DNA of 27,553 nt. Origin: Patescibacteria group bacterium. Lineage in GTDB: Bacteria > Patescibacteriota > Minisyncoccia > UBA6257 > HR35. This document shows, piece by piece, positions 7,969 to 23,642 of this stretch (the stretch's first letter is position 1; every line of letters begins with the position of its first letter). Both the position numbers and the translations under genes were made by a program. The notes beneath the pieces were generated by a model that saw only the letters and a list, made by a program, of their open reading frames with translations, was not told the origin of the DNA and made no database searches. The stretch spans positions 1 through 27,553 of the forward strand of contig JAUQQN010000006.1 in the NCBI GenBank assembly GCA_030549845.1, written 5' to 3'.

Positions 7969-8037
7969 AAATATATGATACAATAAACATTCTAATCAAA
8001 AAATAAAAATCAAAAATTTGCAATTTTAAATCTTAAA

Positions 8038-8775
8038 TTAACTAATTAATCTATGATATAAATTGATTAATTGGGGAAATGAAAGTTGATGTGGTTTTTT
8101 GGCTAAAATCTCTTTATCTACTTTAGATAAATCGAAGTTTTTTAAATTATTTTTTAAATTTTTATTGGGATATTGGAAAATTTTTTTTAGAAAATTTTCG
8201 TAACTTTTATAATCATCGATTAAAGGCTTTTTGTAAAAGACAAACTTTATTGCGATTGAGTCAACCCTTGGAGTAGGGAAGAAGTTATTTCTTTTGATCA
8301 CAAGCAATTTTTTAATTTTACTCCATATGTTAATCCAAGAATGTAAAAAATTGTTTCCATCTTTACCTAAAATTTTTTCGCCATACTCCTTTTGCATAGT
8401 CAAAACAGCAATTTGGGGATGTTCATCTTTGGAAAAAATTTTTCGAATAATTTCTCCTGTTATCGAATATGGGATATTTCCAATTAAGTAATAATTGTTT
8501 TTAAAAACCGACAGATCTGCTTTTAAAAAATCTTCATTTATGATTTCAGCACTTTTAAATCGAGATTTTAAAATTTTAGCTAAATCTCTATCAATTTCAT
8601 AAATAATAAGTTTTTTAGCATCTAATAAATATTTCGAAAGCTCTCCATGACCTCCGCCGATTTCAATTACTATCTTATTGTGGATATCTCCTAAAGAATC
8701 AGCTAAAAATCTTAAAATTTTTGTATTTTTTAAAAAGTGCTGACCCCATTTTTTGGTTTTATTTTGTTTTTTCAT
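8038..8775 (-). CDS. rsmA: 16S rRNA (adenine1518/1519-N6)-dimethyltransferase
   Basis: KKWGQHFLKN...VIEIGGGHGELSKYL...LIGNIPYSITGEII...FFPTPRVDS are KsgA/Erm-family signatures. Confidence 0.9.
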   Translation of the reverse strand: MKKQNKTKKWGQHFLKNTKILRFLADSLGDIHNKIVIEIGGGHGELSKYLLDAKKLIIYEIDRDLAKILKSRFKSAEIINEDFLKADLSVFKNNYYLIGNIPYSITGEIIRKIFSKDEHPQIAVLTMQKEYGEKILGKDGNNFLHSWINIWSKIKKLLVIKRNNFFPTPRVDSIAIKFVFYKKPLIDDYKSYENFLKKIFQYPNKNLKNNLKNFDLSKVDKEILAKKPHQLSFPQLINLYHRLIS

Positions 8776-9679: not shown

Positions 9680-12604
9680 TTACTTTAACAAAATGTAAGG
9701 AGTGAATGGCTTTTCAAAACTTAATGGTGGGTGAAGGCTTTGAGAAAAATATCGCGTTGAATGTTTAAAAGTTAGATAAATTAATTCACCTTTATTGAAT
9801 TCTTCCAAATTTAAAATGAAATTTCTAGGAATTGTGTAATTAAATGTTCTTCTTAAGTTTTCTTTAGTAGGAACCGCTAGGCCTTTAAAATTTTTTTGAT
9901 AGGCTAAGGTTTTTAAGTAAGAAATAATTTCAGAAAGAACCTGAGTTGAAATATTTTCAATTTGAATGGTATCTATAACCAAATATTTATCACCTTCAGA
10001 ATCCTCTGCTTCGAAAAGATTTATATACCCTCTTGCATATTTTCCTACAAAAATAATGTAGAAATGTTCTTTAGGCTCAAATACTCTTAATATTTCATAT
10101 CTCATTTCAGCTGTACAATCACTCGCAATATATCCCCTGAATAAAGCTAGAAATCGATTATTTATAATACTAACAACCTCTTCCTCTCGTTCAGTAAATA
10201 ATACTTTTCCTATTTCACCTTCAATTTCGTGAGATCTTTTTTCAAAAAACCTTAAAATTTCTTGTGGAATAGGAACATTTTTTCCTTTGAAATATTCAAT
10301 TAAACTCCATCCTTGTTGATAACTATAAAGCAAGCCATCTATTTTGGAGTACATCTCTTCACTTTTTAACCTCGAAATTAACCCAGGGTCAGTTAAGCCA
10401 TAACATTCGAAAAGCCTTTTTAGCCATTCTAGTATATGAGGTTTTATAATTTGTGATTTCTGCAATTCAATTAAAAGAATAGCGATTAAGCCTTCTATAA
10501 TTAATTGTTTATTCTCATATTTTTGTAAAAATTCAAGTATAGAAGGAGGAGTTTCTATTTTTTCAGCAATTAATTTTAAATTCCTTGCTTTAGTAATATC
10601 TAGTTTACTTAATCTTTCCTCTTCTATATTCTCTTTAACAGAAAATTCCTTCCTAAGATTTTCATCTCTTATTGTAATATAACTCATAAGATAGGTAAAA
10701 AGATTTAGCTTGTATTCTTCAAATTGTTCTCCTAAAATATCCTTAATTTCCTCTAAGAAACTGAAATCTAAAAATTTATTAAGATTTTGACTTAGTTCTT
10801 GAATTCTCTGTAATATTAATTCAATATTAATATTTTTATAGTCATAGTTAATTCTATTACCTACAATTGGAGGAAAATCTTCAAAACCCCCTTTTATTTC
10901 AAAAGCTTTATAAGCTCTTTCTAAATGAGAAAGCCTTTCAAAATCCTCAGGAATTTTACCCAATAAATGAGTTAGTAAAACTTTTATATTTTTAGGAGTA
11001 GCTCTTTTTTTAAACCATCCTAATATTTCTTCGAAAAATGTAAACGTTAATTTAGTTCTTATACAATAATTTAAAAGAAAAGCATAAAATAAATTTACAT
11101 CATTTTCATTTTCTAAGTCAGGAACTATACCTTCAAAAAATCTATTAATTCTTTCTTGTTGTTTTTTAATCCATTCTTCTAATTCTTGTTTATTTAGGTT
11201 TAAACAGTATCTAACCCATTCTGGAAATGGTAATAAGTTTTGACTAAATAAATACTCTGCCATATCTAATTCCTCTAACGTAGAAAGTTCAAGCAACATA
11301 TTCAATGTGGAAAGATTTATAACTCCCCTTTTTCTTTTATATTCCTTTTGAGCAATACTGGTTATTTTTTTCAACAATTCATATGCAGTAATAATATCAA
11401 CTGCTAACATTTTTTTAATCATATCATCAAGAAAGTAAAAATAATATGGGGAGTACCATAATTCATCTTGAGTTAATTTATTAAGATGATCAATTAACGA
11501 TATAAAAGGCTCAATCGCTGCTTGTGATTGTAATTGTTTTATAAATTCAATTAAATTGGATGTAAATTTTCTTTTTTTGGCACGCGCTAAGTAATCTAAA
11601 TAATCTTTAAAAACTTCAAGCCCTAAAAGTTGAAGGAGAGTTTTTATCAATTCATTATCAAATTCGTATATTTTTTGTCCTAAATTTAATAATAAGAAAA
11701 TATTTTCAATTACATATGGCTCTTTTGAGGAAGTCAAAATAGATATTAAATCTAGTTTTTTCTCAATAGCTTTTAAAAGAGATATTAAATCATCTGCTCC
11801 AAATTTATAAAAAGGGGAGGTAATTTCGAATAATAAATCTAAAAATTTTCTACAATCATCAATTCTTTTTTCTTCCATCAATTCTATAATGATTGACCAA
11901 GATTTTTTTGTAAATTCTGAAACCGGTTCATCTCTAGCAAAGTTTATATATTCTTCCTCCCCTCTAAATTCATATATAAAAGATTCATATTGTGGATAGA
12001 TTTCAGTGATAAAAACAACAATTAAAGGAAAATCAAGCTTTTTCCAAAATTCATAATTGATTTTTTCAATTATTTCAGTTAAATAATCAGCGCTTTGCCC
12101 ATCACTTATTTCTTCAATCTTTTCCACAAAACTTAAAGAGAGTTTTTTAACTTCATTAGGATCTTCGTTTTTTATATAATCTAAAATTTTTTCTAAAAAT
12201 AATTTCAAGATTTCTGGATGACTTTCCAATGTTTCAATATAGAATATCGCGATTTCATTAAAAATTTCCCGTCTTGTTTCATCTAGATTATTTAGCTCGC
12301 TTATGTCTATTAATTTTTCGAGTTTAAGCCTAAATTGCCTTAAGGATTCTTCTTTAGCTTTTTTAATTCTCTCAAGAGCTTCTTCTTCACTAATTTTAGT
12401 CAAAAATTCAGAGAAAAATTCACCTACGGTACCATCATCAAATTCAACTTTAATTAATACTTTTCTTTCTCCTAAAATATCATCTTCTCGTATTGAAATA
12501 ACGCTTCCTACTTTATTTAATTTTTTGTGTAGTACAAAATCTCCGATCTTAAAAGGGAGCTGTTCTTTTTGAATAAATTTATCAAAAGATTCAAAATTTT
12601 TCAT
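9680..12604 (-). CDS. large hypothetical protein (974 aa), mostly alpha-helical, with an N-terminal small beta-barrel-like segment
   Basis: A long uninterrupted ORF. I trimmed the start to the ATG at 12604 (MKNFESFDKF...) because the track's first 24 codons are the antisense of a tRNA gene. I recognise no catalytic motifs and see no Walker A. Confidence 0.75.
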   Translation of the reverse strand: MKNFESFDKFIQKEQLPFKIGDFVLHKKLNKVGSVISIREDDILGERKVLIKVEFDDGTVGEFFSEFLTKISEEEALERIKKAKEESLRQFRLKLEKLIDISELNNLDETRREIFNEIAIFYIETLESHPEILKLFLEKILDYIKNEDPNEVKKLSLSFVEKIEEISDGQSADYLTEIIEKINYEFWKKLDFPLIVVFITEIYPQYESFIYEFRGEEEYINFARDEPVSEFTKKSWSIIIELMEEKRIDDCRKFLDLLFEITSPFYKFGADDLISLLKAIEKKLDLISILTSSKEPYVIENIFLLLNLGQKIYEFDNELIKTLLQLLGLEVFKDYLDYLARAKKRKFTSNLIEFIKQLQSQAAIEPFISLIDHLNKLTQDELWYSPYYFYFLDDMIKKMLAVDIITAYELLKKITSIAQKEYKRKRGVINLSTLNMLLELSTLEELDMAEYLFSQNLLPFPEWVRYCLNLNKQELEEWIKKQQERINRFFEGIVPDLENENDVNLFYAFLLNYCIRTKLTFTFFEEILGWFKKRATPKNIKVLLTHLLGKIPEDFERLSHLERAYKAFEIKGGFEDFPPIVGNRINYDYKNINIELILQRIQELSQNLNKFLDFSFLEEIKDILGEQFEEYKLNLFTYLMSYITIRDENLRKEFSVKENIEEERLSKLDITKARNLKLIAEKIETPPSILEFLQKYENKQLIIEGLIAILLIELQKSQIIKPHILEWLKRLFECYGLTDPGLISRLKSEEMYSKIDGLLYSYQQGWSLIEYFKGKNVPIPQEILRFFEKRSHEIEGEIGKVLFTEREEEVVSIINNRFLALFRGYIASDCTAEMRYEILRVFEPKEHFYIIFVGKYARGYINLFEAEDSEGDKYLVIDTIQIENISTQVLSEIISYLKTLAYQKNFKGLAVPTKENLRRTFNYTIPRNFILNLEEFNKGELIYLTFKHSTRYFSQSLHPPLSFEKPFTPYILLK

Positions 12605-12619
12605 GATAAAATTACCTTT

Positions 12620-12690
12620 TGCCCCTGCCAGGATTCGAACCTGGATTTCAGCCTCCGCAGGGCTGCGTTCTTCCATTGAACTACAGGGGC
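12620..12690 (-). tRNA. tRNA-Arg (anticodon GCG), no encoded CCA
   Basis: The reverse complement folds as GCCCCUG-UA-GUUC-AAUGGAA-GAAC-G-CAGCC-CUGCGGA-GGCUG-AAAU-CCAGG-UUCGAAU-CCUGG-CAGGGGC-A. The acceptor has 7 perfect bp, and the D, anticodon and T stems are all paired. The T-loop is UUCGAAU, A20 is present, and the discriminator is A. Confidence 0.85.
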
Positions 12691-13832: not shown

Positions 13833-13860
13833 GCAAAATATAAACGGCACAGCTAAAAAT

Positions 13861-13899
13861 ATTATAAATTTAGAATGCTATAGCATTGTAAAAATAAAA
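13861..13899. repeat. 39-bp repeat copy 1 with 14-bp palindromic core AATGCTATAGCATT
   Basis: ATTATAAATTTAGAATGCTATAGCATTGTAAAAATAAAA is identical to 13963-14001. Its first 27 nt recur inverted at 23616-23642. Confidence 0.9.
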
Positions 13900-13962
13900 C
13901 AAGTTCTTAAATTTTAATAAGAATATAGCTAATTGTAAACTTACCAAAAAAAGAAAAAGTAG

Positions 13963-14001
13963 ATTATAAATTTAGAATGCTATAGCATTGTAAAAATAAA
14001 A
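13963..14001. repeat. 39-bp repeat copy 2 (identical direct copy)
   Basis: Exact 39/39 match to 13861-13899, offset by 102 bp. A degenerate related unit sits about halfway between (13911-13945, ...AAGAATATAGCTAATTGTAAAC...). Confidence 0.9.
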
Positions 14002-14206
14002 TGCGGTTATTCAATTTTACAAAATAATTAAAGAAAGCCACCTTCCTTTACATACCTGGCCAGAGTATAAGTATTTATCTATTGATATTTTTAGTTGTTA
14101 AAAATTTTCTCAAAAGGTTATAAAAGACTTTATGAAATACAATCAATTCGCCAATACTTCAAAAAGTTCGTGAAAATTATAAGAGAAAAATAAATAGGTT
14201 TAAATA

Positions 14207-14234
14207 GGTTCGTAAAAGATATATTTTGCGAACC
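14207..14234 (-). terminator. hairpin downstream of fba (GGTTCGYAAAA inverted repeat)
   Basis: GGTTCGTAAAA-GATATA-TTTTGCGAACC forms an 11-bp stem with one G-U pair, 19 nt beyond the fba stop on the minus strand. It is followed by an AT-rich tract with only a weak U-run. Confidence 0.35.
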
Positions 14235-14252
14235 ATGATAAAATACAATATT

Positions 14253-15113
14253 TCACCCTAACCAGAATAACTTCTGATAAAAAATAATTTTCTTTGTTAT
14301 TTTTTTTACCACTGGATTTAGAATTTTGTATGGAACAATAGATTCTTTTTTTAAACTTTTTTCTAATTCTTTTTTCCAAATATTTCTAAATTCAGTATTA
14401 ATATGAATTATCGAGATACCGTTCTCTATTGCTTTTAAATAATCTTTTTTATTTAAGCCAGAGCCTCCATGTAAGACTAAAGGTACCTTTACTTTTTCTT
14501 TAATTTCTTTTATTCTTTTAAAATCTAATTTTGGTTTTTCAACTAATTTCCCTTTTATCTTAACTCCTTTAGGTATACCATGAACATTCCCAACGGAAAT
14601 TGCTAAAAGATCAACTTTAGTTTTTTTTACAAACTCTTCTGCTATTTCTGGATCAGTAAAGTACTCTTCTTTTAATTCAATAATACCTTCTATATCGGAA
14701 TGACCAGTTAAATATCCTATTTCTCCTTCAATTAAAGTATTTTTATTTTTTTTATTTCTATATTCTACAACTTTTTTGGTTCGTAAAATATTTTCTTGCA
14801 AATTTAACTCACTTCCATCAAATAATACAAAATCAAACTTATAATCAATAGCTTCTTTTGCAGAATTTATACTTTTGCAATGATCTGCGTTTAGAAAAAC
14901 TTTAATCCCCTGCTCTTTTGCTTCATCTATCAAATCTTCAATATAATTGATACCAAAATAATTTCTTTCTCCTTCTGATACGCCAATTATTAAAGGAATT
15001 TTAGTTTCTTTTACTGCCTCAATTCCTGCCTTAAATTGTTCAAAAGTAGAAACATTATAATGAAGTAATGCTCTACCCTTTTTTAATAAATTATTTAATT
15101 CTTCTTTATTCAT
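14253..15113 (-). CDS. fba: class II fructose-bisphosphate aldolase
   Basis: ALLHYNVSTFEQ (N-terminal xxN motif), FLNADHCKS, GEIG, AISVGNVHG, LVLHGGSG and HINTE are class II FBA/tagatose-bisphosphate aldolase signatures. I chose the ATG at 15113 (MNKEEL...) rather than the track's TTG at 15134. Confidence 0.85.
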   Translation of the reverse strand: MNKEELNNLLKKGRALLHYNVSTFEQFKAGIEAVKETKIPLIIGVSEGERNYFGINYIEDLIDEAKEQGIKVFLNADHCKSINSAKEAIDYKFDFVLFDGSELNLQENILRTKKVVEYRNKKNKNTLIEGEIGYLTGHSDIEGIIELKEEYFTDPEIAEEFVKKTKVDLLAISVGNVHGIPKGVKIKGKLVEKPKLDFKRIKEIKEKVKVPLVLHGGSGLNKKDYLKAIENGISIIHINTEFRNIWKKELEKSLKKESIVPYKILNPVVKKITKKIIFYQKLFWLG

Positions 15114-15248
15114 ATTATTTGAATTATACAACAACCTCTTTTAATTACTTTAACTTAATTTTATTTTGTACATTACTATTAGCTAAAATTAAGCATATTT
15201 TTATTTTTATAATTTTATTGGCACAATACACTTAAAGGAGGGATAAGT

Positions 15249-15434
15249 ATGAAGGAAAAATTACTATTATGCCCCAAATGTGGGTATTTTCCTCTTCAGA
15301 AAGAAGAACCTACAAAGAGGTGGGAGGTGGTCAAAGACTATGTTTTGTATCGATGTCCCCAATGCGGCAGGGGATATTTCGTTTATTTACCTTCTTCCCA
15401 TACTTCCCACAACAAACCTAAGAAAAAACCATGA
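15249..15434 (+). CDS. zinc-ribbon mini-protein (61 aa), GC-richer cassette 1
   Basis: The SD AAAGGAGGG (15234-15242) lies 6 nt before the ATG. The protein has two CPxC knuckles (CPKC...CPQCGRGYFVYL) and a basic tail. A hand count gives about 40% GC with many G/C-ending codons. A strong terminator follows. Confidence 0.65.
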   Translation: MKEKLLLCPKCGYFPLQKEEPTKRWEVVKDYVLYRCPQCGRGYFVYLPSSHTSHNKPKKKP

Positions 15435-15453
15435 ACTTTAAACTTAAGTTTTT

Positions 15454-15489
15454 AAGCCCTGGTTAGAAATAGCCAGGGCTTTTCTTTTT
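15454..15489 (+). terminator. intrinsic terminator of cassette 1
   Basis: AAGCCCTGG-(10 nt loop)-CCAGGGCTT followed by TTCTTTTT. Confidence 0.8.
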
Positions 15490-15597
15490 ATGAATCATTA
15501 GGTTCGCAAAATTTATTCTAAGTTATCCACATTTATGCTTTTGAGGCTTAATTTTTAATTTAAAATTTTTTAAACCCTATAAAAGGAGGTGAGAAGT

Positions 15598-15804
15598 ATG
15601 GAGGAAGAATTATATGAAGTTGAAAAAATTGAACCTAGGTGTCCGGACTGTCTTAGATTGTTAAATATGATAGGTATCGTAAAGGATACTACTATTCCAG
15701 TGTATGAATGCCCCAACTGCAATAGGGTCTTCCTTGTTATCTCCTCCAGTTACCTCGTTGAAATCAAGTATCCATCTTTAAAGTATCTAGCGGCAAAGCT
15801 GTAA
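15598..15804 (+). CDS. zinc-ribbon mini-protein (68 aa), GC-richer cassette 2, paralog-like to cassette 1
   Basis: The SD AAAAGGAGGTG (15581-15591) lies 6 nt before the ATG at 15598. The track's GTG start at 15589 sits inside the SD. The protein has CPDC...YECPNCNRVFLVI, a TAAAAT box sits at 15561-15566, and a terminator follows. Confidence 0.65.
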   Translation: MEEELYEVEKIEPRCPDCLRLLNMIGIVKDTTIPVYECPNCNRVFLVISSSYLVEIKYPSLKYLAAKL

Positions 15805-15830
15805 AGCTGTAGATTAATTTCTCCTTCTTT

Positions 15831-17129
15831 TTAAAGCCCCTCTTGGGGCTTATCTTTTGTAAAAATTTTATTTGTTTCTTTTACTCCTAAAAATCCTAAT
15901 CCAAATATAAATCTTAAAAATCCGGAGATTAACGAAATAATCATAATTGAATTAAAGTAAGGATTTTCAAATAAATTAATCAAAAATCCTCCGATTAGAG
16001 AGCCTAAAAATATTCCAATTCCATAAAAAATATTTGAGTAAGCAGAGCATAAATCTCTTTTAGGTTCAGTTACGTTATTATAGAAAAAATTAGTAGTAGA
16101 AATCCCATGAAAGGACCAAACGATTCCTCCTATTATATTTATTAAAATAACAAAAAATAAAATCCAGTTGAATGGAAGAAATAAAGTAATAGGCCATAAA
16201 AGCGCTGGTAAACTTACTAAGAGACCAACAATTTGCAAAACTTTTATATTACCTATAAGCTCTATAATTTTCCTTGCAATATAATATCCCACAAAAAAAC
16301 CTAAAGAGCTTGCAACTAACATTACTAAAAATTGTGAATAAGAAAACCTTAAATCTCGAAAAATGTATAAGTTGTAATAAGGCCCAGAAAGGTTAGTTGA
16401 AAAAAGAAGTAGGCTGTTAAAAATAACGAATTTTCCAAAGTTTGTTTTTAAACCTCGTTGTATAAAACTTTTAAAAGAAAAATAAGTTTCTAAAGGAGGA
16501 TTAAAAATAGGCTCATAAATTTTATTGATTAAAAATATTCTAAAAATATTTAAGATAGCTCCTATTAAAAAGATAACAACAAACCCAACTAGGGCATTGT
16601 GAAAAATTTGAAATTTAAATACATCCAAAATAATCCCCCCTAAAACTATACCGAATAACCCACCTAATACTGCTAATGAGTTTCTAAAACTAAAATAATA
16701 ATTAATTTTTCTTTTTTCTACAATATCTCCCAATAAACTTGCCCACGAAGGTGCTGCAAGAGAAATAAACAAAGAATAAACAGTAAAAAATAGAATAATT
16801 AAATGAGAAGATATATTCCATTTTAGTAGAATTAAAATAGTAAATATTGTTAAAGCAAAATAAAATAAAGATTGTATGAAAATAGAAGCATTAATCAATT
16901 GTTTACGTTTAAATTTAAAAATTAATTTTCTACTCAAAAGCTGAATCCAAGGACTAATAGCATTTGGTATGCCATTTAAAAGGCCTAATCCTATTGTAGA
17001 AATTTTAATTGTAATTGCGTAAGGAGAAATATAATTATCACAAAGCCCAGATACAATACTTCCAAAAACTACTTCCTTTAAACTTAAGATAACAGATTTT
17101 TCTTTTAAAACAATTTCTTGACTTTTCAT
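15831..17129 (-). CDS. MFS-type transporter
   Basis: 432 aa with about 12 hydrophobic spans in two halves, which is the typical major-facilitator layout. The last ~9 codons (KDKPQEGL) are encoded across the cassette-2 terminator hairpin. Confidence 0.7.
   Translation of the reverse strand: MKSQEIVLKEKSVILSLKEVVFGSIVSGLCDNYISPYAITIKISTIGLGLLNGIPNAISPWIQLLSRKLIFKFKRKQLINASIFIQSLFYFALTIFTILILLKWNISSHLIILFFTVYSLFISLAAPSWASLLGDIVEKRKINYYFSFRNSLAVLGGLFGIVLGGIILDVFKFQIFHNALVGFVVIFLIGAILNIFRIFLINKIYEPIFNPPLETYFSFKSFIQRGLKTNFGKFVIFNSLLLFSTNLSGPYYNLYIFRDLRFSYSQFLVMLVASSLGFFVGYYIARKIIELIGNIKVLQIVGLLVSLPALLWPITLFLPFNWILFFVILINIIGGIVWSFHGISTTNFFYNNVTEPKRDLCSAYSNIFYGIGIFLGSLIGGFLINLFENPYFNSIMIISLISGFLRFIFGLGFLGVKETNKIFTKDKPQEGL
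15834..15859 (+). terminator. intrinsic terminator of cassette 2 (overlaps the 3' end of the convergent MFS gene)
   Basis: AAGCCCC-TCTT-GGGGCTT followed by ATCTTTTGT. Confidence 0.7.
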
Positions 17130-17154
17130 TTTAATAGAATTTTATAAAATTAAG

Positions 17155-17163
17155 TGTTATAAT
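17155..17163 (+). promoter_or_regulatory. extended -10 element TGtTATAAT upstream of 17185 gene
   Basis: TGTTATAAT lies 21 nt upstream of the ATG, in the divergent intergenic region shared with the MFS gene. Confidence 0.4.
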
Positions 17164-17184
17164 TTCAATATTAAGTTCAAGAGA

Positions 17185-17682
17185 ATGCTACCAGGGGCGC
17201 ATATCATAATATCAAACGGTATTTCGCTAAATCTTACAACTAATCCTATTTCAGGATTTATTTTGGGTGTTATAATGCATCATTTAACGGATTCTCTGCC
17301 TCATATTGATCTTAATATCTTAAAAAATTATAATGAGTTTACAATTAAAAATTTACCTAAAAATTTAAAAATTTTATTAACTTTTGAATTTTTAATAGGG
17401 TTTCTTTTTTCTTTACTATATTTTGTTTATTTTTTCGAGAAAAATTTTATTTTATTTTTATTTATAAGCTTAGGGGCAATATTCCCTGATTTAATTATGA
17501 TATTTTTTAAGAGAGCTTTTGAAAAATATGGTTTTGGTAGAAGATACATCAATTTCCATAAAAACTTTCATTACGAGCTCAAAAATAATAGCATAAAAAA
17601 TGTAATTTTTTCTGGAATTATAGAAATTTTGATAATATTTTTATCGATAATATTTTTCAATTTATCCAGCAAATTTGTTTGA
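17185..17682 (+). CDS. small polytopic membrane protein, possibly YdjM/DUF457-like metal-dependent hydrolase
   Basis: 165 aa with 4-5 TM segments. The N-terminal PGAHII and HHLTDSLPHID loosely resemble the GH...PDIDH pattern of DUF457. The match is weak. Confidence 0.45.
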   Translation: MLPGAHIIISNGISLNLTTNPISGFILGVIMHHLTDSLPHIDLNILKNYNEFTIKNLPKNLKILLTFEFLIGFLFSLLYFVYFFEKNFILFLFISLGAIFPDLIMIFFKRAFEKYGFGRRYINFHKNFHYELKNNSIKNVIFSGIIEILIIFLSIIFFNLSSKFV

Positions 17683-17722
17683 TAAAATTTTCAAATAGGT
17701 CGCAATTTTTAAAAGATTAAAA

Positions 17723-18280
17723 ATGCAAAACCCAATTTACTGGATAATAGGTATTGTAATTTTCATTTTCTTAGTAATAGTTTATATATATAACAGATTA
17801 ATAACTTTAGCTCAAAGAGTAAAAGAGGCAGAAAGTGATATAGATGTTCAACTCAAAAGAAGAGCAGATTTAATTCCTAATTTAGTTGAGGCTGTCAAAG
17901 GATACGCTTCTCACGAAAAAGAAGTTTTTGAAAGAGTCACACAAGCAAGATCAGCTTTACTTTCTGCGAAAAATATTAAAGAAGAAATCGAAGCTGATAA
18001 TATGTTAACATCCGCTCTAAAAACTTTATTTGCTGTTGCTGAAAACTATCCAGAGCTAAAAGCTAACCAAAATTTTTTAGAACTTCAAAGAGAACTTAGA
18101 GATGCTGAAGACAAAATTATGGCATCAAGAAGATTCTATAACGCAGTTGTAATGGAATATAATTCCTTTTTGCAGCAATTTCCCAATAATTTAATTGCGA
18201 ATATTTTTAAATTTAAACCCTATGAATATTTTGAAATTGAAGTAGAAGCAGAAAAAGAAGTGCCAAAAGTTAAATTTTGA
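17723..18280 (+). CDS. lemA: LemA family protein
   Basis: An N-terminal TM is followed by YNRLITLAQRVKEAESDIDVQLKRRADLIPNLVEAVKGYASHEKEVFERVTQARS...NYPELKANQNF..LQ.EL...E..I...R..YN, the classical LemA pattern. Confidence 0.85.
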   Translation: MQNPIYWIIGIVIFIFLVIVYIYNRLITLAQRVKEAESDIDVQLKRRADLIPNLVEAVKGYASHEKEVFERVTQARSALLSAKNIKEEIEADNMLTSALKTLFAVAENYPELKANQNFLELQRELRDAEDKIMASRRFYNAVVMEYNSFLQQFPNNLIANIFKFKPYEYFEIEVEAEKEVPKVKF

Positions 18281-18489
18281 TAAGGGTTTGCAAGGAGTTT
18301 TTCAATCTCTTCATCAGGGATTGTTATTCCAAATACTTCCTCTACTTCCATGACCATCTCCACCACATCTAGTGAGTCAGCCTTTAAGTCTTCGATTAAC
18401 AAGGCTGGCTCCTTTACATCCTCGTGTCGTACTTTAAGCCGTTTGACTATTATATCCCGAACTCTTTGAAACACTTCCTCCCTGGTCAC
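18220..18489 (-). CDS. acyl carrier protein-like ORF with aberrant C-terminus (possible 3'-truncated pseudogene), GC-richer cassette 3
   Basis: The SD AAAGGAGGTGA (18496-18506, minus) lies 6 nt before the GTG at 18489. MTREEVFQRVRDIIVKRLKV..EDLKADSLDVVEMVMEVEEVFGITIPDEEIEKLL matches ACP helices I-III with the DSL phosphopantetheine serine motif. The expected helix IV is replaced by sequence that is antisense to the lemA 3' end (61-nt overlap). There is no terminator. Confidence 0.55.
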   Translation of the reverse strand: MTREEVFQRVRDIIVKRLKVRHEDVKEPALLIEDLKADSLDVVEMVMEVEEVFGITIPDEEIEKLLANPYQNLTFGTSFSASTSISKYS

Positions 18490-18545
18490 AGAAGGTCACC
18501 TCCTTTCTTGGAGATTAGTATTAAATATTTTAAACCGCAAAATTT

Positions 18546-21017
18546 CTATAAGCTATCAGGAAAGATTTTGTAATAAAGTTTTTTTGCAAGTTCAGTTAAA
18601 ATAAAGAAAATTGTAAGCAAAATTAATAGTTTATAAATTATCCCAATTGGCAAAAACTTGAAACTAAAAATCCTCATAAAGAATGGATGGAGGATGAACA
18701 TAAAAGTAAGGAAAATAGATACAATTAAAGAAAGGAGGACAATAAAAGGCATTTTAGGAGCGAAAATAATCCAATCTTTTGTTCTTATAGAAAACATAAC
18801 AAATATTCCAGTTAAGGTTGTAATTAAAAATATTGTTGTTCTAACAATATCTATAGAATAATCTTTAACTAATAAATAGGCCCCAATATTAATAAAAGCT
18901 GCAACCATTCCCAATAGAACTAAAAGCATAATAAACTCAAAGCTACTTATTTCTATTGATTTTTTAATATCTTTATTTTTTACATTGTCATAAGCAATAA
19001 ATGCTAAAGGAAGATCTGTAAGCAAATTTGTAAGAAGAACTTGAACAGGGGTTAATGGAGTGTATTTTAAAATTAAGCTTAAAAAAGCTACAGAAAAGAA
19101 ATTACCAAAATTATCACTCATCGTATGCTTAAGGTATTTCCCTATATTAAATACAGCTTTCCTTCCTTCATAAATTGCGTCAACAATTAAGCTTAAATCT
19201 TTTTCTCTTAAAATAACATCAGCCTCTTCTTTAGTAATATCAGTAGCTGTATCAACTACAATTGAAACATCTGAAGTCTTTAATGCAAGAGCATCATTTA
19301 TCCCTTCACCTAAATAACCAACAAAATATTTTTCCTGAAGAGCAGAGATTATTTTAAATTTATGTTCAGGTAAAACCCTGGCGAAAACATTATACTTTTC
19401 ACAAACTTTTAATAACTCCTCTTTACTCATCTTGTCTAAATCTTCTCCTAAAATAACCTCTCCTTTTTCACACAAACCTAAATCAATTGCCACTTTTTCA
19501 GCAACCTCCTTTGCATCTCCTGTTAAAATTTTTATTTTCAAATTGATCTTTTTAGCTTTTTCTATAGTTTCTTTAGTTGTTTCTTTTAATGGATCTTCAA
19601 AAATAGCTAGCCCTAAATATTTAAAATTATTTTCTTCTAATAATCCGAAAGATAAAGTTCTATATCCCATTTGAGAATATTTTTTAAATTCTTGAAGATG
19701 TTTCTCCTTTAAATTTTCATCATCCATATAGCTAATAATATTTTCTGGGGCTCCCTTGATTAAAATTTTTACTTCCCTACCCTCTTCAATTTTAATTTTT
19801 TTAACTCTTTCTTTTGGATCAAAAGGAAATATCTCAATAATTTTTAAATCTTTATTTTCTATCTTAAATTTATTTAATTTTTCATCAAATTTTTCTTTTA
19901 TAGCATCAATATAAAAATCTTTTTCTCCTAATTGCCAACAGTCAATTAGTCCATATTTTAATAAATTGTCAATATCTTCTGAAATTATTTCTTTCAATAC
20001 CATCTCATTTTTTGTAATAGTTCCTGTTTTATCAGTACATAAAATCTCTATTCCTCCTAAATCTTCTATTGAGGACAATCTTTTAATAACTAACCCTCTT
20101 TTTGCTAATTTCAAAGCAGAAATTGATAAAGTTAAAACAGTTACGCCTGGCAAAAATTCTGGAATGATTGAAATCGCTAATGTTATTGCAAATAAAATTA
20201 ATTCCTTTAAAGGAATGGGTTCAGGTTTTAAAAAATTAAATACAAACAATAAAATAATAAGAAAAGCTGCATAAAGAGTAATATATTTTGCAAATTTATT
20301 GAAAGTTTTTTGATATCCAGTTTCTTTTGAGATTTCTAAGGTTGATTTTGCTATTTTCCCTAAATAAGTCATTTGTCCTATTGCAATTACTATTCCCTCA
20401 ATATATCCACTTACAACAGTTGTTCCACTAAATCCTATATTTTTTGCATCATAAATACTCTCGGCTTGGCAAAGATTTTCATTTTTAATAACTGCTTCTG
20501 ACTCTCCTGTTAAAATAGATTCATCTACTAGAGCATTTTCTGATTTAATAATTCTTATATCAGCTGGAATTAAATATCCTGCTTCAACTCTTACATAATC
20601 TCCAATTGTTAACTTTTCCGAATCGATAATTTTAAATTCATTATCTCTTTTAACTTTTGCATAAATTTTAAAATAACTCAAAAGTTCTTCAGCTAATTTA
20701 TTTGATTTGTAGTCCTGATAAATCGAAAGGAAGCTTGCTATAAAAAAGAAAATAAAAATTAAAATTGTTTCTATCGAAAATCCATTAATAATAAGTGCTA
20801 AAATGCCTGCAATAAAGAGTAAAATATTGAAATAGTTCAGCAAATTTCTTTTAGCTATTTCCAATAAGTCTATCTTAAAATATTTAACTTTATTAGGACC
20901 ATATTCTTTTAACCTCTTTTGAGCTTCTTCTTCGTTTAGTCCTGATTCTGACGTTTTTAAAATTTCAAAAATTTCTTCTTGGGTTTTATCAACAAATTTT
21001 AAAAATTCATCTTTCAT
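18546..21017 (-). CDS. cation-transporting P-type ATPase (type II/III-like, Ca2+/Mg2+ family)
   Basis: Motifs present are TGESEAV, PEFLP (TM4), ICTDKTGTITKN, KGAPE, ILTGDA, LPEHK and GEGINDALALK. The protein is 823 aa with N- and C-terminal TM bundles. Confidence 0.9.
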   Translation of the reverse strand: MKDEFLKFVDKTQEEIFEILKTSESGLNEEEAQKRLKEYGPNKVKYFKIDLLEIAKRNLLNYFNILLFIAGILALIINGFSIETILIFIFFFIASFLSIYQDYKSNKLAEELLSYFKIYAKVKRDNEFKIIDSEKLTIGDYVRVEAGYLIPADIRIIKSENALVDESILTGESEAVIKNENLCQAESIYDAKNIGFSGTTVVSGYIEGIVIAIGQMTYLGKIAKSTLEISKETGYQKTFNKFAKYITLYAAFLIILLFVFNFLKPEPIPLKELILFAITLAISIIPEFLPGVTVLTLSISALKLAKRGLVIKRLSSIEDLGGIEILCTDKTGTITKNEMVLKEIISEDIDNLLKYGLIDCWQLGEKDFYIDAIKEKFDEKLNKFKIENKDLKIIEIFPFDPKERVKKIKIEEGREVKILIKGAPENIISYMDDENLKEKHLQEFKKYSQMGYRTLSFGLLEENNFKYLGLAIFEDPLKETTKETIEKAKKINLKIKILTGDAKEVAEKVAIDLGLCEKGEVILGEDLDKMSKEELLKVCEKYNVFARVLPEHKFKIISALQEKYFVGYLGEGINDALALKTSDVSIVVDTATDITKEEADVILREKDLSLIVDAIYEGRKAVFNIGKYLKHTMSDNFGNFFSVAFLSLILKYTPLTPVQVLLTNLLTDLPLAFIAYDNVKNKDIKKSIEISSFEFIMLLVLLGMVAAFINIGAYLLVKDYSIDIVRTTIFLITTLTGIFVMFSIRTKDWIIFAPKMPFIVLLSLIVSIFLTFMFILHPFFMRIFSFKFLPIGIIYKLLILLTIFFILTELAKKLYYKIFPDSL

Positions 21018-21078
21018 TTATTAATTTTAAAATAAAAGGTATAGTAACTATAAAAACTTTGTAAAAAAAATAATTTTT

Positions 21079-21087
21079 TGTATAATA
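21079..21087 (+). promoter_or_regulatory. -10 element (TGTATAATA) for htpX, probable leaderless transcript
   Basis: TATAAT at 21081-21086 is preceded by TG. The ATG at 21094 is 7 nt downstream, with no SD. Confidence 0.45.
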
Positions 21088-21093
21088 TTTAAT

Positions 21094-21990
21094 ATGAAAA
21101 CAGCATATTCAGTGATAGAAGAAAATAATTTAAGAACATGGCTTTTGATGACACTATTTTTGATATTGGTATTTGGTTTTGGGTATTTATTTGCTTATAT
21201 CTTAAATGAACCTGTGATTTTTTATATAGCTGTAATTTTCGGTTTATTAACTAATATATGGAGTTATTACTATGGAGATCGAATTATTACATTTTTAACA
21301 GGAGCTAAGGAAGTAAATAAAAATGATTTGCCTGAGGTTTACAGAATTTTGGAAAATTTATCAATCACTGCAGGGCTTCCTAAAACTCCGAAGTTATATT
21401 TAATAAACACACCTGCTATGAATGCTTTTGCAACAGGAAGAAACCCAGAAAATTCTTTAGTTGCTGTAACTTCTGGATTGATCAATAATTTAAGCAAAGA
21501 AGAGATAGAAGGGGTTATTGCCCATGAAATTTCTCATATAAAAAATAGAGACATTAAAGTAATGATGATAGCAACAATTTTAGCAGGAATAATTGCCATT
21601 ATGGCAGATTTATTTTTGAGATTCGGATTATATTCTTCTTCAGATCGAGAAAACAAAGGAAATGTTATTCTATTTTTAATAGGTTTTATTCTTGCATTGT
21701 TAGCTCCAATTTTTGCACAACTTATTCAACTCGCAATTTCAAGAAAAAGAGAATTTATGGCAGATGCAAGCGGTGCTTTAATCACAAAAAACCCACTAGG
21801 TTTAGCTAGTGCTTTAGAAAAAATTTCTAAACAAAATATTCCAATGGATGTATCTCCTGCAACAGCAAGTTTATTCATAGTTAATCCATTTAAAGATAAA
21901 AAAGGATTTATAAATTGGTTAGGCAACCTTTTTTCTACCCATCCTCCAGTTGAAGAAAGAATAAAAAGGTTAAAAGAGATGATATTGTAA
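21094..21990 (+). CDS. htpX: M48 family zinc protease HtpX
   Basis: Two N-terminal TM helices, NAFATG, HEISHIKNRD (HExxH), a further TM pair, EFMAD and HPPVEERI. Confidence 0.9.
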   Translation: MKTAYSVIEENNLRTWLLMTLFLILVFGFGYLFAYILNEPVIFYIAVIFGLLTNIWSYYYGDRIITFLTGAKEVNKNDLPEVYRILENLSITAGLPKTPKLYLINTPAMNAFATGRNPENSLVAVTSGLINNLSKEEIEGVIAHEISHIKNRDIKVMMIATILAGIIAIMADLFLRFGLYSSSDRENKGNVILFLIGFILALLAPIFAQLIQLAISRKREFMADASGALITKNPLGLASALEKISKQNIPMDVSPATASLFIVNPFKDKKGFINWLGNLFSTHPPVEERIKRLKEMIL

Positions 21991-21997
21991 AAGAGAG

Positions 21998-22030
21998 CCC
22001 CTCCACAAAAATGTGGAGGGGATGTTTTTT
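21998..22030. terminator. strong hairpin shared by convergent htpX and cassette 4
   Basis: CCCCTCCACA-AAAA-TGTGGAGGGG is a perfect 10-bp stem, followed by ATGTTTTTT on the + strand. On the - strand the hairpin is followed by CTCTCTTTT. Confidence 0.8.
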
Positions 22031-22033
22031 AAC

Positions 22034-22246
22034 TTACGTCTCTTCCACGCTAATCTTAACAAAATCCACCCCTTGAAGCTTAATAATGACCTCATGACTT
22101 ACCCTCCCTCCTCTACAGGACTTTCGCACAGCCCTCTTTTGAATTAGTTCATCTATCATTATTACAACCATCCCACTACAATTTTTGTGCGGGCAGGTGA
22201 TGATCGCCTGCCCCTTTATCACGCGAACAACAAGTTGGCTTTCCAC
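22034..22246 (-). CDS. small Cys/His-containing protein (70 aa), GC-richer cassette 4
   Basis: The SD AAAGGGAGGTGA (22252-22263, minus) lies 6 nt before the GTG at 22246. The track's GTG at 22255 is inside the SD. A hand count gives about 45% GC. The sequence contains ITCPHKNCSG...KSCRGGRVSHEVIIKL, TGTATAAT sits upstream at 22285-22292 (minus), and a terminator follows. Confidence 0.55.
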   Translation of the reverse strand: MESQLVVRVIKGQAIITCPHKNCSGMVVIMIDELIQKRAVRKSCRGGRVSHEVIIKLQGVDFVKISVEET

Positions 22247-22344
22247 TATTTTCACCTCCCTTTAGCAAGATATGGCTAAAAACTATTATACAATTAAAAT
22301 TAAAAATCAAGATTAAGGAAAATTTGATTTATAATAATTAGAAA

Positions 22345-22416
22345 GCGGTGGTAGTTCAGAGGTAGAACGCCTGCTTCCCAAGCAGGAGGTCGCGGGTTCG
22401 AATCCCGTCCACCGCT
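22345..22416 (+). tRNA. tRNA-Gly (anticodon CCC), no encoded CCA
   Basis: GCGGTGG-TA-GTTC-AGAGGTA-GAAC-G-CCTGC-TTCCCAA-GCAGG-AGGTC-GCGGG-TTCGAAT-CCCGT-CCACCGC-T forms a full cloverleaf with a U discriminator. Confidence 0.9.
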
Positions 22417-22536
22417 AAAAATTACTCAGGTTTCTTTTATTAAGCACCTGAAGGTAAGTAGTCATTTATTTTCTTTAAAATATATTCCATATCTGACACA
22501 AAGCCTTCTATCTCTTCTTCCCGGATATTAGGCGTT

Positions 22537-22965
22537 CTACCTATTTTTTTCACCGCCATGAATAAAAATCAATAAACTAAATCTAAATTTTTGGATTAAT
22601 TTTTCCACATTAAGTTTGCCATTCTCTATAAAACCTATTCTATATGGAGATTCCCTAAGGTATAAAAGGTGTAAATCTGCATAATTAGGTTTACCTGTTT
22701 CCTTTAACTTAATTTCTCTGAAGCATTTTAATGCTTCATCAAGAAATCTTACAATATTAGTTAATTCATTAAATCTCCTTGTAACGTCTTGCAGGCTCCT
22801 ACCTTCAGGTTGAAAGCTATCTAGGTATTTGTAAACATTCTCCCAAAAATCTCTGAATGGAGAAGAATAACTAAAAAGTTCTTTCAATTTTTTAAATCTT
22901 TCTATTTGTTCTGCTTCTTCTACCTGATTAAATGGCTTTCGCTCTTTGGGTTTAAATCTTTCCAT
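22537..22965 (-). CDS. hypothetical protein (142 aa), possibly frameshift-truncated (alternative frame continues to 22440)
   Basis: An ORF with an ATG at 22965 and no recognisable family. The stop comes immediately after an A7 run (22544-22550 on +). Removing one A would add 34 codons (IGRTPNIREEEIEGFVSDMEYILKKINDYLPSGA). Confidence 0.5.
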   Translation of the reverse strand: MERFKPKERKPFNQVEEAEQIERFKKLKELFSYSSPFRDFWENVYKYLDSFQPEGRSLQDVTRRFNELTNIVRFLDEALKCFREIKLKETGKPNYADLHLLYLRESPYRIGFIENGKLNVEKLIQKFRFSLLIFIHGGEKNR

Positions 22966-23028
22966 TCATTTTATTATAATTTAAATTTATAAAATTTTGA
23001 AAATGAAATCCAAAATGATTTTTATCAT

Positions 23029-23064
23029 ATAAAATAAAAAAGGCAGGAGTAAAAACTCCTGCCT
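23029..23064 (-). terminator. intrinsic terminator of cassette 5
   Basis: AGGCAGGAG-TAAAAA-CTCCTGCCT. On the minus strand the hairpin is followed by TTTTTTATTTTAT. Confidence 0.75.
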
Positions 23065-23077
23065 TAAAATATTAGGG

Positions 23078-23293
23078 TTAGTTAGAGATAAAACCCAGCC
23101 ACCGGAGTATTTGAACCCCGATGGCTGTCATAATTCCAAACCCCAAAATAAAGAAAAGTATCAAGGCCAGTGGGGGTGCTCCCCACCGGCCATACACTAC
23201 AGACCACTCGCTCTCAGGGACCCCGTTCATCCCCGAAAACCACAGCCACCACCTCCATAGATTTTTTGCCATGCTTCGAATTTTCTCCCACAT
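23078..23293 (-). CDS. Trp-rich small membrane protein (71 aa), GC-richer cassette 5
   Basis: The SD AAAGGAGGTGA (23301-23311, minus) lies 8 nt before the ATG. The protein is MWEKIRSMAKNLWRWWLWFSGMNGVPESEWSVVYGRWGAPPLALILFFILGFGIMTAIGVQILRWLGFISN, with one clear TM helix. A terminator follows. The two + strand track ORFs here are antisense artefacts. Confidence 0.6.
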   Translation of the reverse strand: MWEKIRSMAKNLWRWWLWFSGMNGVPESEWSVVYGRWGAPPLALILFFILGFGIMTAIGVQILRWLGFISN

Positions 23294-23344
23294 CTTTCTT
23301 TCACCTCCTTTGTAGAGTGCATAGTTTTTATTTTAATCCATTTT

Positions 23345-23373
23345 TTGACATTCCTTAATATTTAATTTAAAAT
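23345..23373 (+). promoter_or_regulatory. near-consensus sigma70-type promoter of cassette 6
   Basis: TTGACA (23345-23350), a 17-nt spacer, then TAAAAT (23368-23373). About 15-25 nt downstream is the SD AAAAGGAGGTGA (23388-23399). Confidence 0.55.
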
Positions 23374-23405
23374 TTAAAAAGCACCCCAAAAGGAGGTGAA
23401 GCAAA

Positions 23406-23489
23406 ATGAAGAAGTTATTGTTTATTATTATTTTTTTGTATTTTCTTATAATCACTATTATTTTTTTGCTCCCTCAACCTTCAAGGTAG
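23406..23489 (+). CDS. 27-aa hydrophobic peptide, cassette 6
   Basis: The ATG is 7 nt after GGAGGTG. The peptide is MKKLLFIIIFLYFLIITIIFLLPQPSR followed by TAG. It is flanked by a consensus-like promoter and a terminator, and is too short to appear in the ORF track. Confidence 0.5.
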   Translation: MKKLLFIIIFLYFLIITIIFLLPQPSR

Positions 23490-23506
23490 GGAGGACCATT
23501 TAATAC

Positions 23507-23537
23507 AGCCTGCCCTTAAGGGGCGGGCTTTCTTTTT
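23507..23537 (+). terminator. intrinsic terminator of cassette 6
   Basis: AGCCTGCCC-TTAAG-GGGCGGGCT forms 9 bp with one G-U pair, followed by TTCTTTTT. Confidence 0.75.
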
Positions 23538-23615
23538 AATATTAATTGAAATTACAAAATACCTTAACTTCTTCTCTCCTTTCTCATTTTTCCTCAAAAA
23601 TAAAACTTTCCTAAA

Positions 23616-23642
23616 AATGCTATAGCATTCTAAATTTATAAT
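23616..23642. repeat. inverted 27-bp copy of the 13861/13963 repeat
   Basis: AATGCTATAGCATTCTAAATTTATAAT is the exact reverse complement of the first 27 nt of the 39-bp repeat. Confidence 0.9.

Follow-up and report, generated by a model that had tools for sequence, protein, structure and literature searches.

The window analyzed here comprises positions 1 to 27,553 (27,553 nucleotides, nt) of contig JAUQQN010000006.1 of a Patescibacteria group bacterium, and our subject is a set of six small genes, c1 to c6, that lie among its housekeeping genes. The window has a GC content of 27.3% and encodes enolase, a Kef-type exchanger, PGI, RsmI, KsgA, an M23 peptidase, ThiI, a class II aldolase, an MFS transporter, LemA, a P-type ATPase, HtpX and a class II CCA enzyme. 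Among the products of these 27.5 kb we found no domain typical of phages, integrases or transposases. The closest relatives of its HtpX are those of hot-spring Patescibacteria, with Ca. Paceibacter KUB_Bin06 at 81% identity and the Parcubacteria KatS3mg094, 096 and 097 from the Katase hot spring at 65-72% (PMC9671151). The host is a hot-spring Patescibacterium belonging to the Paceibacteria.

A first-pass annotation had singled out the six short open reading frames (ORFs) as autonomous cassettes, and all of them were found where it had placed them. It had also noted that convergent host genes abut, which agrees with the ORF coordinates. The cassettes, with their candidate signals, are as follows.

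15208-15491, forward strand: c1; TATAAT box at 15208-15213; Shine-Dalgarno (SD) sequence AAAGGAGGG at 15234-15242; ORF 15249-15434; terminator 15454-15481 followed by a T-run
15541-15860, forward strand: c2; TTGAGG and TAAAAT boxes; SD AAAAGGAGGTGA at 15581-15592; ORF 15598-15804; terminator 15834-15851
18220-18520, reverse strand: c3; SD AAAGGAGGTGA at 18496-18506; GTG start at 18489; ORF 18489-18220, 89 amino acids (aa); no terminator
21998-22320, reverse strand: c4; extended -10 element TGTATAAT at about 22286-22293; SD AAAGGGAGGTGA at 22252-22263; ORF 22246-22034
21998-22021: terminator of c4, bidirectional and shared with htpX
22344-22417, forward strand: tRNA-Gly(CCC), given for context, outside the cassettes
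23040-23335, reverse strand: c5; SD AAAGGAGGTGA at 23301-23311; ORF 23293-23078; terminator 23040-23065
23345-23540, forward strand: c6; promoter TTGACA-17-TAAAAT at 23345-23373; SD AAAAGGAGGTGA at 23389-23399; ORF 23406-23489; terminator 23507-23529

Expression signals and composition

As a host-gene set we took the 21 window ORFs of at least 90 aa that lie outside any longer ORF. The GGAGG core occurs 6-9 nt upstream of the start in 6/6 cassettes and in none of these 21 long genes (Fisher p = 3.4e-6, with the caveat that the six ORFs were first chosen partly on their SD); within 25 nt of the start, GGAGG is likewise missing from all 21. Both halves of this contrast, the host genes lacking GGAGG and the near-complete anti-16S match before each cassette (AAAGGAGGTGA, AAAGGGAGGTGA or AAAGGAGGG type), had been pointed out in the first-pass annotation, and both hold. 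Six 10-mers of the AAGGAGGTGA type, five of which serve as cassette SDs, are present in the window where 0.5 would be expected; none of the four remaining AAGGAGG sites is followed by an ORF. A blind scan for GC islands recovers the places of the cassettes together with two tRNAs.

Host genes have a GC content of 0.23-0.33 and a GC content at third codon positions (GC3) of 0.13-0.22 (n = 21). The corresponding values for c1-c5 are 0.38-0.50 and 0.34-0.58 (Mann-Whitney p = 1.2e-4 for GC3), and GC is elevated at codon positions 1, 2 and 3, most strongly at the third. Earlier hand counts of about 40% for c1 and 45% for c4 match the computed 0.40 and 0.45. The description of the cassettes as GC-richer thus applies to c1-c5 and fails for the c6 ORF, whose GC is 0.24, with only its GC3 (0.36 over 27 codons) and its terminator elevated.

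The window contains 14 terminator-like sites, against 3.6 ± 2.0 expected. The strongest stand at the ends of c1, c2, c4, c5 and c6, in line with the earlier count of five cassettes with a terminator, and c3 has none. The best promoter match in the region is the TTGACA-17-TAAAAT of c6. Twelve cassette leaders from six genomes can be aligned, and their GGAGG is invariant even though the ORFs behind them have diverged to 17-47% identity. The likeness noted earlier between the leaders of c2 and c6 is real, yet it is part of this plan common to the 12 cassettes.

Core genes of the clade look different. In a survey of 134 long, low-GC3 ORFs from the window and 12 related loci, an SD core precedes just eight. 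Instead, hexamers resembling a -10 box peak at 6 nt (17 sites) and 9 nt (15 sites) upstream of the ATG, over a background of 3-4; at htpX, 7 nt separate TATAAT from the ATG. Such a pattern is typical of leaderless mRNAs, and we infer that core mRNAs are leaderless or SD-less. Genes for L11, S6, S18, EF-P and NusG in relatives also lack an SD and have a GC3 of 0.12-0.28. Given this agreement between housekeeping genes and the 134-ORF survey, the contrast between host and cassettes is not an artefact of the small sample, a concern raised with the original observation.

We also considered whether the cassettes might be structured non-coding RNAs. Against dinucleotide shuffles, the folding z-scores of all cassettes except c5 fall between -0.9 and +1.0, and host pieces give 0 ± 1. 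Searches of Rfam, at gathering thresholds and at E values up to 5, matched tRNAs alone in the window. The non-coding reading was rejected for five of the six; c5 stays odd. The cassettes are real genes: changes in c1 are mostly synonymous, the Cys/His residues of c4 are kept, and c5 and c6 have homologues.

Products of the six cassettes

The two cassettes between fba and the MFS gene encode CxxC...CxxC proteins, one of 61 aa (c1; GC 0.40, GC3 0.39; knuckles CPKC and CPQC) and one of 68 aa (c2; GC 0.38, GC3 0.41; knuckles CPDC and CPNC). They are weak paralogues of each other (pairwise BLASTP E = 7e-5; phmmer E = 0.006). Their best scores against Pfam and NCBIfam zinc-ribbon models are 17-19 bits, where the cut-offs are 20-37. 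In length and in carrying two CxxC knuckles, c1 and c2 resemble the HVO_2753-like and YnfU/ECs_2282-like micro-proteins of archaea and bacteria; c4 likewise has a Cys/His set, and weak matches to these families were obtained. All these scores nonetheless lie below the family cut-offs, and c4 has neither a family nor a fold match. From their sequences, c1 and c2 probably bind zinc. The terminator of c2 overlaps the final codons of the MFS gene. In the predicted c2 transcript, the SD region AAAAGGAGGUGAGAAG (15581-15596) pairs with UUUCUCCUUCUUUUU (15819-15833), just 5' of the terminator. This could represent sequestration of the SD or coincidence; the fold as a whole is not significant (z = -1.05).

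The cassette between htpX and tRNA-Gly encodes a 70-aa protein with the motif CPHxNC...C...H (c4; GC 0.45, GC3 0.48). Mechanical ORF calling starts it at a GTG at 22255, within the SD; the start at 22246 agrees with the deposited 70-aa protein P0016. Searching 1.84 billion representative proteins exhaustively with HMMER, we found only three relatives, P0048-P0050 (E = 5e-8 to 5e-7). These are about 70 aa long and all share CPHxNCGG...C...H; all three come from AT-rich, Paceibacteria-like contigs, and two of them adjoin htpX. A word-indexed search returned only c4 itself, and nothing for c5. AlphaFold2 modeled c4 with a mean confidence (pLDDT) of 45 from the single sequence and 83 from a five-sequence alignment. 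Foldseek matched the latter model to nothing in the PDB, and all that Pfam and profile searches of PDB sequences with the c4 family brought up was a local similarity to the zinc site of beta-carbonic anhydrase. An AbrB/MazE-like swapped-hairpin fold, suggested by a beta-beta-alpha-beta-beta order and a G-x-V-x-I-x-x-x-L motif, found no support and was dropped. We regard c4 as a beta-rich Cys/His protein that probably binds zinc.

Upstream of cca, c5 and c6 are transcribed in opposite directions from back-to-back promoters, without any overlap between their transcripts. An antisense promoter-terminator pair of the kind expected for a type I toxin-antitoxin system was not evident there. Both products are predicted to be small membrane proteins. 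That of c5 (GC 0.50, GC3 0.58) is a Trp/Arg-rich protein of 71 aa with a homologue in the equivalent slot of a related locus, L093 (37% identity, BLASTP E = 1e-11, GC 0.25). The RNA of the c5 ORF is unusually structured (z = -5.25), unlike that of its AT-rich homologue (z = +1.45). Its coding sequence holds three long perfect or near-perfect hairpins, one of which is GGCCGGTGGGGAGCACCCCCACTGGCC, and a terminator-like hairpin with a 13-bp stem and U-run lies inside the 3' end of the ORF (23096-23127), just 5' of the stop codon. The hairpins may serve attenuation or a second function at the RNA level.

The c6 product is a hydrophobic, single-helix peptide of 27 aa that ends in LLPQPSR. In L092, a c4 homologue has as its neighbor a similar peptide of 36 aa that ends in LSPLPAK, and together with a peptide of contig L001 (described below) these c6 homologues keep a C-terminal LxPxPx(R/K) motif. 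Genes of the c4 type and small membrane peptides occur together in four contexts (the window, L092, L093 and L001), a co-occurrence that hints at a functional pairing.

The cassette at the 3' end of lemA is a decaying fragment of an acyl carrier protein (ACP) gene. Codons 1-65 of c3 (18489-18295) correspond to the N-terminal three-quarters of ACP, including the DSL serine that receives phosphopantetheine (LKADSLDVVE); the last 24 residues are read-through into the antisense strand of lemA. The fragment matches PP-binding PF00550 (E = 1e-8) over model positions 1-54 of 67 and the NCBIfam ACP model NF002148 (80.7 bits, cut-off 71) over positions 2-64 of 79, so that it falls short of the whole four-helix domain, which measures about 75-80 aa. 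Full-length ACPs reach about 57% identity at best, and most of them are unnamed.

Variation among strains and related genomes

In their core genes, other contigs of the population match the window at about 99% identity; they differ from it at the cassettes. The first-pass annotation had asked for misassembly to be checked. The junctions recur, at 99.5-100% identity, in assemblies made independently from other sequencing runs: L003 (over 17855-22414) and L117 (over 13972-17884) match the window at 100%, and L001 spans 18531-23335. Chimeric assembly is excluded by these contigs. Four further strain contigs (L006-L009) end exactly at cassette borders, as expected where alleles coexist in one sample.

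Only two extra contigs, L117 and L118, cover c1 and c2. The c1 allele of L118 differs from that of the window at 37 of 186 nt (20%), while the fba, c2 and MFS sequences on either side differ by at most 0.5%. Within codons 1-48, 12 of the changed codons are synonymous and 4 nonsynonymous, which indicates purifying selection on the protein. The c2 protein is identical in both contigs.

At the lemA site we found four states: the form in the window, one with three amino acid changes (P0003), one with an additional 11-codon deletion (P0017), and absence. In L002, L004, L005 and L006, 25 nt replace the ACP piece 18294-18495. In L002 (2468-2520, corresponding to window positions 18294-18520), and likewise in the other three, a perfect orphan SD AAAAAAGGAGGTGA is left with no start codon or ORF after it. 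The 50 nt upstream of the c3 SD differ at five positions (10%) between alleles, compared with about 0.8% in the ATPase gene; c3 alleles thus have different leaders too.

In L004 and L005, 360 other nt with their own SD and a 77-aa homologue stand in place of the c4 unit (22021-22320). This homologue is only 30% identical to the window c4, and the adjoining HtpX is 100% identical. Across the family, pairwise identity of c4 proteins (17-47%) does not track that of the neighboring HtpX (71-100%): the c4 closest to that of the window, at 47%, is the one in L095, whose HtpX is the most distant (78%). At the c6 slot, L001 carries 1442 nt in place of the segment 23336-23613. This insert encodes an SD-led peptide homologous to c6, MKFRSFIILIILAYLVLMFVLFLLPTPAR, with its own terminator, and also a PaaX/Cas2-like gene. 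The signals, the contrast in composition, the existence of the genes, their polymorphism among strains and the incongruence between cassette alleles and their flanks are all direct observations.

In related species some slots are closed. The fba-MFS gap of L010 measures 127 nt, and tRNA-Gly directly follows htpX in L019 (htpX ends at 10891, tRNA-Gly starts at 10901) and L020 (653 and 660). The c4 unit is therefore an insertion at the htpX-tRNA-Gly junction, and the cassettes of both slots are insertions relative to these species. Downstream of lemA, other species show the same plan with different contents: TTGACA-17-TATAAT or TTGACA-17-TAAAAT, a leader, GGAGGTGA, a GC-rich ORF and a hairpin terminator. 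L013 has there (7545-8420) a 60-aa zinc ribbon (GC 0.47) and an 82-aa membrane protein (GC 0.59), and the closed genome L016 (4600-5591) a 283-aa polytopic membrane protein with a GC content of 0.61 in a genome of 30% GC. The 3' end of lemA thus seems to be a place where such genes land repeatedly.

A palindromic repeat of about 30 nt with the core AATGCTATAGCATT occurs at 13874-13887, 13976-13989 and 23616-23629, and among the cassettes it borders the c6 slot alone. With up to two mismatches there are five matches, against 0.34 expected, and the repeat is confined to variable intergenic slots of this population. Copies at 4942, 5309, 6008 and 6249 of L001 bracket the modules of the 1442-nt insert, that is, the c6-like cassette and the PaaX/Cas2-like gene. 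The palindrome could be an operator for the PaaX/Cas2-like regulator or a recombination site. Two of its copies lie in the 420-nt AT-rich gap between thiI and fba (13833-14252), which also holds a degenerate orphan SD, AAAGGAAGGTGG, on the reverse strand at about 14037-14048 with no ORF. Four SD-led genes without recognizable relatives (ORFans), encoding 120-130 aa, occupy this slot in L010, and in the window the gap looks like an emptied cassette slot.

Origin of the cassettes and other features of the window

We conclude, with a probability of roughly 0.6, that the six cassettes are independent, leadered, monocistronic small-protein genes that form a flexible, strain-variable complement of hot-spring Paceibacteria. 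Each would combine a sigma-70-type promoter, a leader of 20-35 nt, a 10-11-nt complement of the 16S 3' tail (AAAGGAGGTGA) and an intrinsic terminator, and would be translated independently of its neighbors through canonical 30S, SD-dependent initiation. Core genes, with a -10 box 6-7 nt upstream of the ATG, would instead give leaderless or SD-less mRNAs. With an SD of 10-11 nt, the cassettes would reach the ribosome by another path than the leaderless core, and so long a duplex would be plausible at high temperature. At the slots (fba-MFS, htpX-tRNA-Gly, the region 5' of cca and the 3' end of lemA), cassettes are lost, decay or are replaced by divergent alleles, most likely by DNA uptake followed by homologous recombination in the conserved flanking genes. 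The GC-richer alleles would be drawn from a gene pool richer in GC than the 27% GC chromosome; a GC-richer source for many alleles is suggested by the elevation at all three codon positions, the truncated ACP gene and the 61% GC gene of L016. As to function, the products are likely zinc-binding regulators and small membrane peptides, and possibly act in interactions with hosts or phages.

Several observations weigh against this conclusion. The SDs were called without the host's own 16S 3' tail in the comparison, and promoter boxes are not enriched in such AT-rich DNA (35 against 50.5 expected); the TATAAT and TAAAAT boxes claimed earlier belong to the common plan and number no more than chance would provide. 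Searches of Pfam, PHROGs, PADLOC and NCBIfam gave just the ACP match of c3 and sub-threshold zinc-ribbon matches. Neither a recombinase nor a common motif was found at the swap borders, nor any repeat there beyond the palindrome AATGCTATAGCATT of the c6 slot. No donor or GC-rich reservoir was found: in the exhaustive search the c4 family appears only in AT-rich contigs of the clade, and scans of viral and metagenome contigs with back-translated CPHxNCGG gave chance matches only. The htpX-cca slot of L093 holds SD-led genes of the c5, zinc-ribbon and c4 types in the order and orientation of the window, with a host-like GC of 0.22-0.31 (0.25-0.31 for the c4 and c5 types), and such conservation of the order cca-c5-(Zn)-c4-htpX is compatible with a vertically inherited locus. 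In L010, a paralogue with a GC of 0.25 stands beside a copy with 0.44, and six SD-led ORFan genes with a GC of 0.22-0.28 occupy slots that are empty in the window.

Because SD-led genes of L093 and L010 have host-like GC, the two properties are separable: the SD marks the whole accessory class and high GC only part of it. Among cassette homologues GC3 spans 0.14 to 0.58, a spread that fits either amelioration or several sources. The earlier suggestion of a mobile or acquired small-protein system is borne out insofar as cassettes are present, absent or swapped between strains with 99% identical flanks. As "one foreign small-protein system" it is too simple, since GC-richness can vary within the families of c4 and c5, which are clade-specific, sit in an equivalent slot and have host-like GC in L093, with no donor found.

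A bolder version of this conclusion, which we offer tentatively, sees a genome of two tiers, in which a leaderless, extremely AT-rich core of thermophilic Paceibacteria would coexist with a portable pool of mini-genes for zinc-binding and membrane micro-proteins, built on a conserved chassis, issuing from an unseen GC-richer reservoir and moved by an unknown mechanism. The chassis might consist of the promoter, the 11-nt SD and the terminator, with swaps between co-occurring strains and species at a few slots; this part is equally tentative. Possible reservoirs, no less conjectural, would be an extrachromosomal element, a virus or the symbiont's host. On this view the cassettes would amount to phage-free morons of a chromosome.

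It is unlikely that the cassettes are simply native small genes, old, vertically inherited and clade-specific, whose SD and GC are kept by selection for initiation and for mRNA or protein stability in the heat and whose proteins evolve fast. This explanation is in keeping with the restriction of the c4 and c5 families to the clade, their equivalent slot and order by htpX, the retention of the SD across species and the missing donor. Long SDs are, moreover, expected in thermophiles. It fits poorly with c4 alleles of 30% identity beside an HtpX of 100% and with the general incongruence of c4 and HtpX, and the divergence of c1 is a sharply bounded tract of 20% between flanks that differ by at most 0.5%. 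GC is also raised at codon positions 1, 2 and 3, some homologues have host-like GC, the highly expressed housekeeping genes are free of such a bias, and the RNA structure of the ORFs is ordinary except in c5. The truncated ACP gene and the 61% GC gene of L016 cannot be native.

GC-biased gene conversion at recombination hot spots could in principle raise GC in place, with no foreign donor. The cassettes are indeed replacement hot spots, and the rise in GC is greatest at third codon positions. To our knowledge, however, an increase in GC3 from 0.18 to 0.5-0.6 over 200-nt tracts is far above the effects reported in bacteria. The swapped segments also include AT-rich leaders and promoters, and in L010 and L093 the variable genes led by an SD are AT-rich, all of which makes this explanation very unlikely.

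The first-pass annotation had compared the cassettes to phage morons, in which a single ORF brings its own promoter and terminator and lies inserted between adjacent phage genes (PMC4378225). The architecture is matched: the cassettes are likewise autonomous promoter-SD-ORF-terminator units between genes that abut in related genomes (L019 and L020), and they differ from their neighbors in composition (GC3 0.34-0.58 against 0.13-0.22, with the c6 ORF, GC 0.24, as the exception). Unlike morons, they lie in a cellular chromosome, flanked by fba, MFS, lemA, P-type ATPase, htpX, tRNA-Gly and cca, several belong to clade-specific families that keep their slot across species, and they are also distinct in their mode of translation initiation. 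It is most improbable that they are morons or were left behind by a degraded prophage or plasmid that had integrated near tRNA genes. The tRNA-Gly next to c4 and the PaaX/Cas2-like gene in the L001 insert would suit such an origin, but the window lacks phage, integrase and transposase domains, and the cassettes are spread over four separate slots among housekeeping genes. Moreover, tblastn against 50,697 phage records gave no match to c4 or c5, and PHROG families gave none beyond weak zinc-ribbon noise.

An artefact, either a chimeric assembly with a GC-richer organism or structured non-coding RNAs misread as ORFs, is scarcely credible: GC-rich islands in the AT-rich genomes of thermophiles are often RNA genes, the two window tRNAs are such islands and the c5 ORF is strongly folded, but the junctions recur in independent assemblies, Rfam finds tRNAs only, five of the six ORFs have ordinary folding energies, and synonymous changes, conserved Cys/His residues and homologues mark the products as proteins. 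The cassettes appear to be a poorly known pool of exchangeable mini-genes.

Two further systems invite comparison. Flexible genomic islands of the replacement type are fixed slots whose alleles, multi-kilobase clusters for glycosylation or surface structures, are exchanged through conserved flanks. The cassettes likewise swap between near-identical strains, their variants coexist, and assemblies break at their borders; they are instead single mini-genes of 200-400 nt encoding proteins of 27-90 aa. Integron cassettes are also small, single-ORF, exchangeable units at recurrent sites. In our case, however, the borders share no attC-like site and the window has no integrase or attI. Integron cassettes are promoterless and read from a common Pc, whereas those described here have their own promoter-like boxes, leader, SD and terminator, and are dispersed in both orientations.

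Genomes of Actinobacteria, Deinococcus-Thermus and many archaea mix leaderless and SD-led genes (PMC3160421, PMC6028130). The genome studied here likewise appears to use two modes, with a -10 box immediately 5' of leaderless ATGs, but the modes are split by gene class, with an SD-less core and near-perfect SDs on small, variable ORFans. In the literature we found no report of leaderless or SD usage, or of a split in initiation between core and accessory genes, in Patescibacteria. These bacteria, also known as CPR, are ultra-small and mostly uncultured symbionts whose gene expression and exchange are almost undescribed. So clean a split in a genome of the 0.6-Mb class offers a natural system for the coexistence and regulation of two initiation regimes in the heat, and it flags which genes serve as the currency of gene flow. 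Since four of the six products are missing from a collection of 15 billion proteins, gene callers systematically miss this class, and it could be widespread. The hypervariability among strains suggests roles in interactions with hosts, phages or competitors.

Other features of the window deserve mention. On the reverse strand, a mechanical 998-aa ORF (9680-12676) overlaps tRNA-Arg(GCG) (12620-12690, reverse strand), and translation probably begins instead at the ATG at 12604, right behind the tRNA. The product has no Pfam domain. Because different SD-led ORFan genes fill the equivalent slot of L010, this gene belongs to the variable complement despite its host-like GC. A 142-aa ORF (22537-22965) and a 39-aa ORF (22440-22559), both on the reverse strand within 22440-22965, form a single 174-aa gene in L001. 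The copy in the window therefore carries a frameshift, be it that of a pseudogene or a sequencing error. It encodes an ORFan, and its start is of the leaderless type (TATAAT, 7 nt, ATG).

Two records, MEM4650049.1 and MEM2555191.1, come from near-identical contigs in metagenome-assembled genomes named Candidatus Bathyarchaeia archaeon and Nitrososphaerota archaeon. RsmI, KsgA, the class II CCA enzyme and the best relatives all point to Paceibacteria, so these labels probably reflect mis-binning, or possibly co-abundance with an archaeal partner. Finally, a forward-strand gene at 1365-1958, which overlaps the end of the enolase gene by 8 nt, encodes a 197-aa protein with a DOT1-like domain of the histone H3K79 methyltransferase family (Pfam E = 2.7e-20), which is unusual in a reduced bacterial genome.

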